A DNA stretch of 64,000 nt from Escherichia coli (lineage in GTDB: Bacteria > Pseudomonadota > Gammaproteobacteria > Enterobacterales > Enterobacteriaceae): assembly GCF_050320075.1 (NCBI RefSeq), contig NZ_CP190018.1. One strand, given 5' to 3'. The notes under the pieces were generated by a model, which had not been told where the DNA came from, ran no database searches, and worked only from the letters and a program-made list of their open reading frames with translations. The translations under genes and the position numbers were made by a program. Shown piece by piece: positions 14,448-50,215 of the stretch (the first letter of the stretch is position 1; the number at the start of each line of letters is the position of its first letter).

Positions 14448-15776
14448 TTAGCGGCCTTTTGCCAGATATTGCTCCATCTCTTCTTCCGGCACCATTCCAC
14501 CTCCCGTCGCCCACACCAGATGAGTGGCATTACGCAGTTGTTCTGCGCTGAAACCGTGCATCTGTTGGTAACTTACTGATGCGCACACGCGCTGAGGCCC
14601 GGCCATACCCGCCAGTGCCGAAGGTTCAAGACGAATGCCTTCTTCCTGCGCCAGCCAGCCAAGCATGTCATACATGGTTTGATCGCTAAGGGTATAGAAG
14701 CCATCCAGTAGACGCTCCATTGCCCGCCCGACAAAGCCTGATGCGCGACCAACTGCAAGGCCATCCGCTGCGGTAAGGTTGTCGATACCAATATCCTGAA
14801 CAGAAATCTGATCGTGTAATCCTGTATGGACGCCTAACAGCATACAAGGGGAGTGCGTTGGTTCGGCAAAAAAGCAGTGAACATGATCGCCAAATGCCAG
14901 TTTAAGCCCGAATGCGACGCCACCAGGACCACCGCCAACACCACACGGCAGATAGACAAACAGAGGGTTATCAGCATCGACGATACGACCTTGCTCGGCA
15001 AATTGCGCTTTAAGACGCTGGCCTGCGACGGAATACCCAAGGAACAACGTGCGGGAATTCTCGTCATCAATAAAGAAACAGTTCGGGTCAGACTGCGCTG
15101 CGTTACGTCCTTCCTCGACTGCAACACCATAATCTTGCTCATATTCCACGACCGTAACGCCATGGCTGCGCAGTTTCGCTTTTTTCCATGCCCGGGCATC
15201 AGCAGACATATGTACTGTCACCTTAAAGCCAATGCGGGCGCTCATAATGCCGATTGATAACCCCAGATTTCCGGTTGAGCCCACAGCAATGCTGTATTGG
15301 CTAAAGAACTGTTTAAACTCCGGAGAAAGCAGTTTGCTGTAGTCATCTTCAAGCGTCAGCAACCCCGCTTCCAGAGCCAGTTTTTCTGCATGTGCCAGGA
15401 CTTCATAAATCCCGCCGCGTGCTTTTATGGAGCCGGAAATGGGCAAATGGCTATCTTTTTTCAGTAGCAGTTGCCCGCTGATCGGTTGTTGATATTCCTT
15501 TTCCAGCCGTTTTTGCATAGCCGGAATGGCAACCAGTTCTGATTCAATAATCCCCCCAGTAGCAGCAGTTTCAGGAAATGCTTTTGCCAGATAGGGTGCA
15601 AAACGGGATAAGCGCGCATGGGCGTCCTGAACATCCTGTTCGGTCAGGCCAACATAAGGTAAACCTTCAGCCAATGAGGTCGTGCCAGGATTAAACCAGG
15701 TGGTTTCTTTAAGAGCAACCAGATCCTTTACCAATGGATACTGGGCGATGAGCGAATTCATTTTAGCGTTTTCCAT
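14448..15776 (-). CDS. dsdA: D-serine ammonia-lyase (D-serine dehydratase)
   Basis: Track ORF 442 aa, PLP-dependent fold; recognised as DsdA; appears full length. Confidence 0.95.
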
Positions 15777-15793
15777 AGTACGTCTCTTTGCGC

Positions 15794-16012
15794 TTAGATG
15801 ATAAATGACAGCAGGAATGTGCCCGCCAGAGCGACGACTGAAGCGATAAATGTCGCTGTCGTATAGTATTTAAATGTTTCATTGAGCGTAGCGCCGCAAT
15901 ATTGCTTCGCCAGCCAGAAAAGCGAGTCCGTAACGATCGTGCAGCCAATCGCACCTGAACCGATAGCAATCGCAATAATTTCCGGGCTGATGTCGGGATA
16001 CAGCGGCAGCAC
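15794..16012 (-). pseudogene. dsdX: 3' remnant of dsdX (GntP-family D-serine permease), truncated by csc cluster
   Basis: About 72 codons encoding a GntP-family C-terminus directly upstream of dsdA; similarity ends at about 16012 where csc sequence begins; in-frame stop just upstream. Confidence 0.7.
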
Positions 16013-16254
16013 AATGATCCATATTTATATTTTCTTCTCCAGATTGGCGATGCCAGTTGGCATGTTTTACCTACTTGCCTACATGGTTACTCGTTGGCGA
16101 GAACAGAGGCGGAATTGGGTACAATTGTCCGGGAATTATTGTTATTTTTTATTGTATTGCCGTGTCGGGTGATAGGGCGTCGAGAATATCGTTGGATCTC
16201 GCCAGTGACGTCTGTTTCTGCTACAGTGCCCGTTTTACGGCAAACGGCTTGGGT

Positions 16255-17250
16255 ATGGCTTCATTAAAGGATGTCGCACGCCTGGCGGGAGTGTCGATGA
16301 TGACAGTCTCCCGGGTGATGCATAATGCAGAATCTGTGCGTCCTGCAACGCGTGATCGCGTATTGCAGGCAATCCAGACCCTGAATTATGTTCCTGATCT
16401 TTCCGCCCGTAAGATGCGCGCTCAAGGACGTAAGCCGTCGACTCTCGCCGTGCTGGCGCAGGACACTGCTACCACTCCTTTCTCTGTTGATATTCTGCTT
16501 GCCATTGAGCAAACCGCCAGCGAGTTCGGCTGGAATAGTTTTTTAATCAATATTTTTTCTGAAGATGACGCTGCCCGCGCGGCACGTCAGCTGCTTGCCC
16601 ACCGTCCGGATGGCATTATCTATACTACAATGGGGCTGCGACATATCACGCTGCCTGAGTCTCTGTATGGTGAAAATATTGTATTGGCGAACTGTGTGGC
16701 GGATGACCCAGCGTTACCCAGTTATATCCCTGATGATTACACTGCACAATATGAATCAACACAGCATTTGCTCGCGGCGGGCTATCGTCAACCGTTATGC
16801 TTCTGGCTACCGGAAAGTGCGTTGGCAACAGGGTATCGTCGGCAGGGATTTGAGCAGGCCTGGCGTGATGCTGGACGAGATCTGGCTGAGGTGAAACAAT
16901 TTCACATGGCAACAGGTGATGATCACTACACCGATCTCGCAAGTTTACTCAATGACCACTTCAAATCGGGCAAACCAGATTTTGATGTTCTGATATGTGG
17001 TAACGATCGCGCAGCCTTTGTGGCTTATCAGGTTCTTTTGGCGAAGGGGGTACGTATCCCGAAGGATGTCGCCGTAATGGGCTTTGATAATCTGGTTGGC
17101 GTCGGGCATCTGTTTTTACCGCCGCTGACCACAATTCAGCTTCCACATGACATTATCGGGCGGGAAGCTGCATTGCATATTATTGAAGGTCGTGAAGGGG
17201 GAAGAGTGACGCGGATCCCTTGCCCGCTGTTGATCCGTTGTTCCACCTGA
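16255..17250 (+). CDS. cscR: LacI-family sucrose operon repressor CscR
   Basis: Track ORF 16057..17250; start moved to in-frame ATG at 16255 (331 aa) where the LacI-type HTH begins (MASLKDVARLAGVSMMTVSRV). Confidence 0.9.
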   Translation: MASLKDVARLAGVSMMTVSRVMHNAESVRPATRDRVLQAIQTLNYVPDLSARKMRAQGRKPSTLAVLAQDTATTPFSVDILLAIEQTASEFGWNSFLINIFSEDDAARAARQLLAHRPDGIIYTTMGLRHITLPESLYGENIVLANCVADDPALPSYIPDDYTAQYESTQHLLAAGYRQPLCFWLPESALATGYRRQGFEQAWRDAGRDLAEVKQFHMATGDDHYTDLASLLNDHFKSGKPDFDVLICGNDRAAFVAYQVLLAKGVRIPKDVAVMGFDNLVGVGHLFLPPLTTIQLPHDIIGREAALHIIEGREGGRVTRIPCPLLIRCST

Positions 17251-17257
17251 TATTATG

Positions 17258-18691
17258 TTAACCCAGTTGCCAGAGTGCTCCATGTTGCAGCACAGCCACT
17301 CCGTGGGAGGCATAGAGCGACAGTTCCCGTTCTTCTGGCTGCGGATATATTCGGCTACTCATCACCGCCTCCCCGTCGTTAATAAATACTTCCACGGATG
17401 ATGTATCGATAAATATCCTTAGGGCGAGCATGTCACCCTGCGGGAGGGGAATACTACGGTAGCCATCTAAATTCTCGTGTGGGTAATACCGCCACAAAAC
17501 AAGTCGCTCAGATTGGTTATCAATATACAGCCGCATTCCAGTGCCGAGCTGTAATCCGTAATGTTCGGCATCACTGTTCTTCAGCGCCCACTGCAACTGA
17601 ATCTCAACTGCTTGCGCGTTTTCCTGCAAAACATATTTATTGCTGATTGTGCGGGGAGAGATAGATTGATGCTGCTGGCGTAACGACTCAGCTTCGTGTA
17701 CCGGGCGTTGTAGAAGTTTGCCATTGCTCTCTGATAGCTCGCGCGCCAGCGTCATGCAGCCTGCCCAGCCTTCACGTTTTGAGGGCATTGGCGATTCCCA
17801 CATATCCATCCAGCCGATAACAATACGCCGACCATCCTTCGCTACAAAGCTTTGTGGTGCATAAAAGTCATGCCCGTTATCAAGTTCAGTAAAATGCCCG
17901 GATTGTGCAAAAAGTCGTCCTGGCGACCACATTCCGGGTATTACGCCACTTTGAAAGCGATTTCGATAACTGTATCCCTCGGCATTCATTCCCTGCGGGG
18001 AAAACATCAGATAATGCTGATCGCCAAGGCTGAAAAAGTCCGGACATTCCCACATATAGCTTTCACCCGCATCAGCGTGGGCCAGTACGCGATCGAAGGT
18101 CCATTCACGCAATGAACTGCCGCGATAAAGCAGGATCTGCCCCGTGTTGCCTGGATCTTTCGCCCCGACAACCATCCACCATGTGTCGGCTTCACGCCAC
18201 ACTTTAGGATCGCGGAAGTGCATGATGCCTTCTGGTGGAGTGAGGATCACACCCTGTTTCTCGAAATGAATACCATCCCGACTGGTAGCCAGACATTGTA
18301 CTTCGCGAATTGCATCGTCATTACCTGCACCATCGAGCCAGACGTGTCCGGTGTAGATAAGTGAGAGGACACCATTGTCATCGACAGCACTACCTGAAAA
18401 ACACCCGTCTTTGTCATTCTCGTCTCCTGGCGCTAGCGCAATAGGCTCATGCTGCCAGTGGATCATATCGTCGCTGGTGGCATGTCCCCAGTGCATTGGC
18501 CCCCAGTGTTCGCTCATCGGGTGATGTTGATAAAACGCGTGATAACGATCGTTAAACCAGATCAGGCCGTTTGGATCGTTCATCCACCCGGCAGGAGGCG
18601 CGAGGTGAAAATGGGGATAGAAAGTGTTACCTCGGCGCTCGTGAAGTTTTGCTAGTGCGTTTTGCGCCGCATGTAATCGAGATTGCGTCAT
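17258..18691 (-). CDS. cscA: sucrose-6-phosphate hydrolase / invertase CscA (GH32)
   Basis: Track ORF 17258..18700; start at the in-frame ATG giving 477 aa; GH32 motifs WMNDPNG and EC present. Confidence 0.9.
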   Translation of the reverse strand: MTQSRLHAAQNALAKLHERRGNTFYPHFHLAPPAGWMNDPNGLIWFNDRYHAFYQHHPMSEHWGPMHWGHATSDDMIHWQHEPIALAPGDENDKDGCFSGSAVDDNGVLSLIYTGHVWLDGAGNDDAIREVQCLATSRDGIHFEKQGVILTPPEGIMHFRDPKVWREADTWWMVVGAKDPGNTGQILLYRGSSLREWTFDRVLAHADAGESYMWECPDFFSLGDQHYLMFSPQGMNAEGYSYRNRFQSGVIPGMWSPGRLFAQSGHFTELDNGHDFYAPQSFVAKDGRRIVIGWMDMWESPMPSKREGWAGCMTLARELSESNGKLLQRPVHEAESLRQQHQSISPRTISNKYVLQENAQAVEIQLQWALKNSDAEHYGLQLGTGMRLYIDNQSERLVLWRYYPHENLDGYRSIPLPQGDMLALRIFIDTSSVEVFINDGEAVMSSRIYPQPEERELSLYASHGVAVLQHGALWQLG

Positions 18692-18725
18692 TTTTATCAT
18701 CCTGGTTAAGCAAATTTGGTGAATT

Positions 18726-18737
18726 GTTAACGTTAAC
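18726..18737. promoter_or_regulatory. candidate CscR operator O1
   Basis: Perfect 12-bp palindrome GTTAACGTTAAC in the cscA/cscK divergent promoter region. Confidence 0.5.
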
Positions 18738-18789
18738 TTTTATAAAAATAAAGTCCCTTACTTTCATAAATGCGATGAATATCACAAAT

Positions 18790-18801
18790 GTTAACGTTAA
18801 C
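18790..18801. promoter_or_regulatory. candidate CscR operator O2
   Basis: Second identical copy of GTTAACGTTAAC (both preceded by TG), 64 bp from the first. Confidence 0.5.
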
Positions 18802-18906
18802 TATGACGTTTTGTGATCGAATATGCATGTTTTAGTAAATCCATGACGATTTTGCGAAAAAGAGGTTTATCACTATGCGTAAGTCAGATGAATTTAAGGG
18901 AAAAAA

Positions 18907-19830
18907 ATGTCAGCCAAAGTATGGGTTTTAGGGGATGCGGTCGTAGATCTCTTGCCAGAATCAGACGGGCGGCTACTGCCTTGTCCTGGCGGCGCGCCAG
19001 CTAACGTTGCGGTGGGAATCGCCAGATTAGGCGGAACAAGTGGGTTTATAGGTCGGGTCGGTGATGATCCTTTTGGTGCGTTAATGCAAAGAACGCTGCT
19101 AACTGAGGGTGTCGATATCACGTATCTGAAGCAAGATGAATGGCACCGGACATCCACGGTGCTTGTCGATCTGAACGATCAAGGAGAACGTTCATTTACG
19201 TTTATGGTCCGCCCCAGTGCCGATCTTTTTTTAGAGACGACAGACTTGCCCTGCTGGCGACATGCCGAATGGTTACATCTCTGTTCAATTGCGTTGTCTG
19301 CCGAGCCTTCGCGTACCAGCGCATTTACTGCGATGACGGCGATCCGGCATGCCGGAGGTTTTGTCAGCTTCGATCCCAATATTCGTGAAGATCTATGGCA
19401 AGACGAGCATTTGCTCCGCTTGTGTTTGCGGCAGGCGCTACAACTGGCGGATGTCGTCAAGCTCTCGGAAGAAGAATGGCGACTTATCAGTGGAAAAACA
19501 CAGAACGATCGGGATATATGCGCCCTGGCAAAAGAGTATGAGATCGCCATGCTGTTGGTGACTAAAGGTGCAGAAGGGGTGGTGGTCTGTTATCGAGGAC
19601 AAGTTCACCATTTTGCTGGAATGTCTGTGAATTGTGTCGATAGCACTGGGGCGGGAGATGCGTTCGTTGCCGGGTTACTCACAGGTCTGTCCTCTACGGG
19701 GTTATCTACAGATGAGAGAGAAATGCGACGAATTATCGATCTCGCTCAACGTTGCGGAGCGCTTGCAGTAACAGCGAAAGGGGCAATGACAGCGCTGCCA
19801 TGTCGACAAGAACTGGAAAGTGAGAAGTAA
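18907..19830 (+). CDS. cscK: fructokinase CscK (PfkB family)
   Basis: Track ORF 307 aa, ribokinase/pfkB fold with GAGD motif. Confidence 0.9.
   Translation: MSAKVWVLGDAVVDLLPESDGRLLPCPGGAPANVAVGIARLGGTSGFIGRVGDDPFGALMQRTLLTEGVDITYLKQDEWHRTSTVLVDLNDQGERSFTFMVRPSADLFLETTDLPCWRHAEWLHLCSIALSAEPSRTSAFTAMTAIRHAGGFVSFDPNIREDLWQDEHLLRLCLRQALQLADVVKLSEEEWRLISGKTQNDRDICALAKEYEIAMLLVTKGAEGVVVCYRGQVHHFAGMSVNCVDSTGAGDAFVAGLLTGLSSTGLSTDEREMRRIIDLAQRCGALAVTAKGAMTALPCRQELESEK

Positions 19831-48041: not shown

Positions 48042-50215
<2,174 letters not shown>

Follow-up and report, generated by a model that had tools for sequence, protein, structure and literature searches.

The csc sucrose regulon of Escherichia coli is reportedly known from strains EC3132, W and O157:H7 through work by Bockmann in 1992 and by Jahreis in 2002. 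The locus described here is this published chromosomal regulon of the argW/dsd island. Its four genes keep their order, orientation and position by argW, and nothing structural differs. A literature search found no study of the transcript ends of cscR and cscA, of their 3' overlap or of interference between them.

Three kinds of described systems resemble the convergent junction of cscR and cscA. The excludon concept is said to go back to Sesto in 2013 and to Toledo-Arana and Lasa in 2020. Like the convergent excludons of E. coli (PMC12288877), cscR and cscA are neighbors that have opposing roles and converge across a very short intergenic distance, 7 bp in this case. In MG1655, 165 convergent pairs have overlapping transcripts, and their intergenic distances are shorter than those of non-overlapping pairs (PMC12288877). 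Any terminator in such a pair is expected inside the transcription unit of the neighbor. It was predicted there in 146 of the 165 K-12 cases, whereas none was found at cscR/cscA. The mapping was done in K-12, which lacks csc; at cscR/cscA both the overlap and the mutually exclusive expression would be predictions.

Collision-driven bidirectional terminators between convergent E. coli genes, reportedly from Ju in 2019, are the second kind. As in those pairs, the two csc genes are convergent, and head-on encounters could set the transcript ends (bioRxiv 10.1101/2022.10.23.513370). The described terminators need an RNA hairpin in the overlap between the genes to fix the site of collision, whereas the 7-bp spacer has none.

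The third kind is represented by prgQ/prgX of Enterococcus pCF10 and by pR/pL of coliphage 186, convergent-promoter switches that combine interference with antisense RNA (Shearwin 2005, Callen 2004). As at csc, a regulator gene there faces the unit that it controls, and suppression in cis is possible. The promoters of those switches lie a few hundred base pairs apart and the overlap is an evolved and tested part of the switch. In contrast, the csc promoters are ~2.6 kb apart and the overlap would lie at the far 3' ends.

Organization of the csc Locus

The window is a stretch of 64,000 nucleotides from E. coli (assembly GCF_050320075.1, contig NZ_CP190018.1). The order of genes is emrKY, dsdA (-), the dsdX remnant (-), cscR (+), cscA (-), cscK and cscB (+) and the tRNA. 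Thus, cscA is divergent from cscKB and convergent with cscR. The features of the locus are as follows.

14448-15776, - strand: dsdA, intact here and on the strand of cscA, for a D-serine ammonia-lyase of 442 aa (ORF, family scan)
15794-16012, - strand: dsdX remnant with the N-terminus missing, downstream of cscA on the same strand (PGAP annotation)
16255-17250, + strand: cscR, LacI-family repressor of the csc regulon, 331 aa (ORF, PGAP annotation, LacI-family matches)
17248-17250, + strand: stop codon TGA of cscR
17251-17257, no strand: 7-bp spacer TATTATG between both stop codons (read directly)
17258-17260, - strand: stop codon TAA of cscA (TTA as reverse complement)
17258-18691, - strand: cscA, sucrose hydrolase/invertase, 477 aa (ORF, annotation, TIGR01322 with E 4e-143)
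18692-18906, no strand: divergent control region of cscA and cscKB (position from annotation; promoters and CscR operators according to PMC3938415 and PMC11251922)
18907-19830, + strand: cscK, fructokinase (ORF, family scan, annotation)
19892-21139, + strand: cscB, sucrose permease (ORF, family scan, annotation)
21584-21655: tRNA (Rfam match; tRNA-Arg in the collinear record)

The family scans returned a LacI-type regulator, the sucrose-6-phosphate hydrolase family (E 4e-143), a fructokinase, an oligosaccharide MFS transporter and a D-serine ammonia-lyase. Together with the annotation, they identify cscR as a LacI-type regulator, cscA as a GH32 invertase, cscK as a fructokinase and cscB as a LacY-like permease. 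The site is that of argW and dsd, with dsdA and the dsdX remnant at 14448-16012 on one side and the tRNA at 21584-21655 on the other. The dsdC gene and the 5' part of dsdX are replaced, and PMC11251922 likewise describes cscBKAR in the place of dsdC and part of dsdX. An Rfam search over the whole window returned the tRNA alone and no family at the junction.

Positions 17240-17269 read gttccaccTGAtattatgTTAacccag, i.e., gttccaccTGA-tattatg-TTAacccag. The open reading frame of cscA on the - strand spans 17258-18700, and the PGAP start gives 17258-18691. In a genome that is identical over 16000-19000, PGAP annotated a LacI-family regulator at 16255-17250 and cscA at 17258-18691, with a gap of 7 bp. 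A second record labels the genes cscR and cscA, and its gap is likewise 7 bp. The original prediction had named the two genes from the sequence and placed their stop codons 7 bp apart around TATTATG; the names agree with the family scans and the named record, and the positions with the sequence and the annotation.

The 121-bp junction was found in 2663 of 5426 complete E. coli genomes, with one copy per genome, and at 99% identity or more in 2247. The arrangement TGA-TATTATG-TTA is identical in four divergent E. coli lineages, including O157:H7 and the most divergent match. A 48-codon open reading frame starts with an ATG at 17255, four bases past the stop codon of cscR. It was rejected as a coupled frame, as the start is lost in relatives, whose spacers CACAGTA, CGCGTTA and GCAACGA lack that ATG.

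Terminators and RNA Structure at the Junction

Near the junction, the consensus terminator scan over 15700-19000 detected nothing terminator-like on the two strands. A relaxed scan for hairpins followed by T residues (4 or more T in 8, dG no higher than -6), run along both read-through paths, gave just irregular hairpins without U tracts. A hidden intrinsic terminator is rejected on these two scans; at or near the junction, neither strand has a GC-rich hairpin followed by a U tract past its stop codon. Nor is there a palindrome between the stop codons of the kind on which hairpin-dependent bidirectional terminators rely, the 7-bp spacer being too short. The claim that the spacer has no room for a terminator hairpin is thus borne out, and the scans of both strands add that none is hidden nearby.

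The region 17150-17350 (201 nt) folds no better than its shuffled versions, with z-scores of +0.85 and +0.56 on the two strands. A special RNA structure across the junction is rejected on these values. Synonymous sites were compared among five csc-clade sequences. For the last 15 and 30 codons, conservation gave p = 0.26 and 0.36 in cscR and p = 0.49 and 0.034 in cscA, where the value of 0.034 is uncorrected and is equaled by internal windows. Selection on an overlapping RNA was rejected, as neither 3' end shows excess synonymous constraint.

It is conceivable that transcription ends near the stop codons at weak hairpins within the coding ends, so that the overlap is minimal. The candidates are the last 46 nt of cscA followed by UUAACAUAAUAU, and the palindromes CGGATC...GATCCG and CAGCTTCC...GGAAGCTG at the 3' end of cscR. 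The strongest local hairpin is formed by those last 46 nt of cscA (-16.4 kcal/mol) and lies directly upstream of the cscA stop codon. A palindrome with an 8-bp stem at 17139-17172 reaches -12.6 and -12.9 kcal/mol on the two strands. Collision-type bidirectional terminators of E. coli are also unlike classical intrinsic ones (bioRxiv 10.1101/2022.10.23.513370). However, none of the candidate hairpins has a proper U tract, and the region as a whole folds like shuffled sequence. As a conserved element the cscA-end hairpin was rejected: in the csc-clade alignment, two-sided changes occur at 0 of its pairs, and the inner helix is just 75% paired and is broken in relatives. Transcription from the cscA promoter of enterohemorrhagic E. 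coli (EHEC) also demonstrably goes past the end of cscA. Termination close to the stop codons is thus considered very unlikely.

With no terminator, no unusual fold, no covarying structure and no extra synonymous constraint found at the junction, each transcript should run on into the partner gene as antisense RNA.

Transcription Past the End of cscA

The genetics of EHEC bears on the cscA side. The EHEC junction is identical to that in the window. O'Boyle et al. 2020 (PMC7486766) described a spontaneous 1,120-bp deletion that took cscR and the last 149 bp of cscA; cscA was up 58-fold and dsdA 33-fold. A clean deletion of cscR alone conferred D-serine tolerance and catabolism, and this was reversed by cscR in trans. 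For that deletion, arms of 50 bp directly adjoining cscR were used, and excision of the cassette left an FRT scar. Because the arms flank cscR, the cscA stop codon and the spacer are kept in that strain. The wild-type reporter of the same study was self-repressed, because its fragment carried cscR. The authors ascribe the expression of dsdA to read-through from the cscA promoter, and they hold the altered chromosomal context to be the main driver of dsdA activity.

These data show that the end of cscA and the spacer fail to stop transcription efficiently, and that CscR-repressible transcription gets to dsdA when cscR is absent (PMC7486766). The result pertains to strains that lack the body of cscR, and not to the distance traveled through an intact cscR. 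From the lack of a terminator and from the read-through in EHEC, the transcripts of cscR and cscA very probably overlap at their 3' ends. The original prediction was that they must overlap; the overlap has gained support from both lines of evidence, while its necessity is still a matter of inference.

It has to be considered whether the cscA terminator is missing because read-through ties sucrose induction to dsdA, a gene that lost its activator DsdC. The dsdA gene is intact here and on the strand of cscA, cscA-promoter read-through activates it in cscR deletion strains (PMC7486766), and the - strand between cscA and dsdA is free of terminator-like sites that have a good U tract. Against this, the wild type has ~1.5 kb of untranslated antisense and remnant RNA in between, with several stretches of C>G, and the EHEC authors give the leading role to chromosomal context. 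In a strain with an identical csc junction dsdA is frameshifted, which speaks against selection. The use of sucrose and D-serine is also reported to be mutually exclusive (PMC11251922). It is most improbable that the junction has been kept for this coupling.

Composition of the Read-Through RNAs

Untranslated antisense RNA past a stop codon is the usual substrate of Rho (Peters et al. 2012). The C/G ratio was used here as a crude proxy for Rho sites. Two candidate regions were marked by this heuristic.

17141-17257, - strand: candidate Rho loading region in the cscA read-through RNA, antisense to the 3' end of cscR, C-rich and G-poor
17485-17874, + strand: candidate Rho loading regions in the cscR read-through RNA, antisense to cscA, the first that are strongly C>G

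Right after the cscA stop codon, the first ~117 nt of RNA have a C/G of 1.47-1.80 in 78-nt windows. This corresponds to the 89th-97th percentile of the window and to the 84th-95th percentile of the antisense-of-ORF background. Similar ratios recur in the cscA read-through RNA at +156 to +272 and at +351 to +467. Past the cscR stop codon, the RNA turns C>G from about +234 nt; C/G is 1.47-1.71 at 17485-17640 and 1.75-2.08 at 17758-17874 (+507 to +623). The high values of both paths fall at the 84th-98th percentile of the antisense-of-ORF background, and antisense RNA is in general C>G (median 1.10). To judge from base composition, the C-rich stretches are suggestive of Rho entry regions, and only suggestive.

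We consider it probable, at roughly 60%, that the junction is a compact one lacking a terminator, where read-through is ended by Rho or by collisions within the partner gene, and that it has no selected regulatory role. RNA polymerase that passes the end of cscR would continue into cscA, and polymerase that passes the end of cscA would continue into cscR, in both cases antisense. The ribosome would leave at the stop codon and expose untranslated C-rich antisense RNA to Rho. When both genes are active, head-on collisions of polymerases, another known means of stopping convergent transcription, would also halt it and, as there is no hairpin at the junction, the sites of collision would be scattered. 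The 3' ends of the mRNAs would be ragged, with an overlap of tens to several hundred nucleotides. We infer the end positions in the wild type as well as the roles of Rho and of collisions. If cscR is damped when cscA transcription is induced, this would be a by-product of the layout and not a tuned device.

Junctions in Related Bacteria

A scan for CscA with one genome per species gave 80 loci, in which homologs of CscR, CscK and CscB were located and the exact stop-to-stop distances were taken. The arrangements are as follows.

52 of 80 loci (Enterobacterales): invertase and LacI-type repressor genes convergent
18 of 80 loci: both genes present, not convergent
10 of 80 loci: no CscR homolog in the fetched DNA

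The gap at the 52 convergent loci has a median of 7 bp and extremes of -82 and +208 bp, and it is distributed as follows.

13 of 52: stop-to-stop overlap
14 of 52: gap of 0-10 bp
10 of 52: gap of 11-35 bp
15 of 52: gap of 36 bp or more

The gaps are 1, 2, 13, 21, 22 and 55 among species of Yersinia and -4, 2, 13 and 29 among those of Rahnella. All members of the csc clade proper (Escherichia and Citrobacter amalonaticus) have a 7-bp gap, and the spacers differ in sequence (CATAATA, CACAGTA, CGCGTTA and GCAACGA). Spacers were folded for the 17 loci with gaps of at least 29 bp. GC-rich hairpins of -13 to -26 kcal/mol were found in 13, and all of these belong to the group of 15 loci whose gap is 36 bp or more. 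Most of these hairpins lack U tracts, and they are like the hairpin-type bidirectional elements of E. coli. Judged from these alignments and distances, the junction is free to drift among overlap, abutment and an insulated spacer.

The convergent pairing of invertase and repressor persists through several operon layouts, and this might hint at selection for convergence. A tight junction also offers no neutral breakpoint at which the two genes could be parted, which explains the persistence equally well.

Such persistence would fit a functional convergent excludon. Transcription from the strong cscA promoter, derepressed by sucrose, would then lower cscR mRNA and create positive feedback. Collision, occlusion or cleavage of the RNA duplex by RNase III would cut full-length cscR mRNA, so that induction is sharpened or locked in. 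In the uninduced state, read-through from cscR would damp leaky expression of cscA. The two genes are opposed in function with no terminator between them, and their convergence is kept in 52 of the 70 loci that have both. In E. coli, mutually exclusive expression has been documented for convergent excludons (PMC12288877). The csc induction reportedly needs unusually high sucrose (>1%; PMC3938415), leaving room for extra control. On the other hand, the length of the overlap is not conserved across that range of gaps, an insulating hairpin would separate the genes in many relatives, and the repressor gene is placed divergently in 18 loci. In C. freundii, cscA and cscR are reportedly each inverted (PMC11251922). 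The drift in gap and spacer and the lack of synonymous-site constraint at the 3' ends are contrary to a tuned antisense device. An excludon selected for its function is thus unlikely.

As for expression, a literature search that included E. coli W and engineered strains found no report of cscR mRNA under induction of cscA or by sucrose. A study of an O104:H4 rpoS mutant observed lower cscR mRNA and higher cscK and cscB mRNA, where cause and effect are not separated.

The excludon and the coupling to dsdA can also be combined. The cscR gene would then be both the repressor gene and a cis-acting insulator; read-through upon sucrose induction would lower cscR and produce a switch-like, high threshold, and part of it would reach dsdA. 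In that case, D-serine deaminase and tolerance of D-serine would go up with sucrose in EHEC and other csc+ pathogens, which are considered to be kept out of niches rich in D-serine. This combination is distinctly doubtful. Overall, a regulatory reading of the junction, such as the interference or antisense pairing between repressor gene and target suggested in the original prediction, is a reasonable hypothesis, to which the comparison with relatives lends no support.

Frequency of Tight Convergent Pairs

A sample of 200 kb from an annotated E. coli genome contains 18 convergent pairs of coding sequences, and the gap is 10 bp or less in 4 of them.

cscR/cscA: gap 7
acrS/yhdU: gap 2
yfcJ/flk: gap -4
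ydeM/hypothetical: gap -35

The 7-bp convergent spacing is real and statistically ordinary. The pair yfcJ (48045-49223, + strand) and flk (49220-50215, - strand) lies in the same window as csc, and the two genes share 4 nt at 49220-49223.

Implications

The arrangement is that of the published locus and one of many tight convergent pairs in E. coli, and it matters little as such. Moving or deleting cscR in E. coli W or EHEC alters what lies past an unterminated, inducible cscA transcript. The practical case is the deletion of cscR in EHEC, which already turns on dsdA. If induced cscA transcription measurably lowers cscR, this could help to explain the unusually high sucrose threshold, and the pair would be a natural example of a convergent excludon formed by a repressor and its target.

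Flanking regions of the csc genes

Downstream of cscA, on the same strand, the interval 14448-16012 holds an intact dsdA (442 aa), despite the absence of its activator gene dsdC, together with what is left of a shortened dsdX. The annotation of strain CFSAN061763, which is otherwise identical, gives dsdA as a frameshifted gene. On the other side, the interval 21140-21730 holds two features, a DUF4942 fragment lying between cscB and a tRNA gene.

21219-21371, minus strand, DUF4942 fragment of 50 aa
21584-21655, minus strand, tRNA gene (tRNA-Arg in the collinear record)

The DUF4942 fragment is apparently a prophage remnant. CFSAN061763 carries a P22-like prophage of ~40 kb at the cscB-tRNA site, which is absent from the window.

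Tight convergent gene pairs

A second such junction in the window is tighter than that of cscR and cscA: yfcJ and flk overlap by 4 nt (48045-50215).

48045-49223, plus strand, yfcJ, converging on flk
49220-50215, minus strand, flk, converging on yfcJ

In NZ_CP042899.1, the stops of the convergent genes acrS and yhdU are separated by 2 bp. acrS encodes a TetR-type repressor; like cscR, it is a regulator gene without space for a terminator at its convergent end.

ORF and palindromes around the cscR/cscA junction

An ORF of 48 codons (17255-17401, plus strand) lies antisense to cscA, with its ATG four bases past the cscR stop. This ATG is not kept in the Escherichia sp. or C. amalonaticus relatives, and thus the ORF is probably a chance occurrence, as judged from sequence comparison.

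The 3' region of cscR contains a palindrome, CAGCTTCC...GGAAGCTG, with an 8-bp stem at 17139-17172. Folding of each of the two strands gives roughly -12.6 to -12.9 kcal/mol. The palindrome lacks a U tract, and its loop takes most of the changes within the csc clade.

The E. coli junction lacks the GC-rich spacer palindromes of the Serratia and Providencia loci. There, near-perfect palindromes without U tracts are observed in the invertase-repressor spacers (L057, L074 and L059 from Serratia; L067, L078 and L082 from Providencia), and these are candidates for hairpin-type bidirectional terminators.
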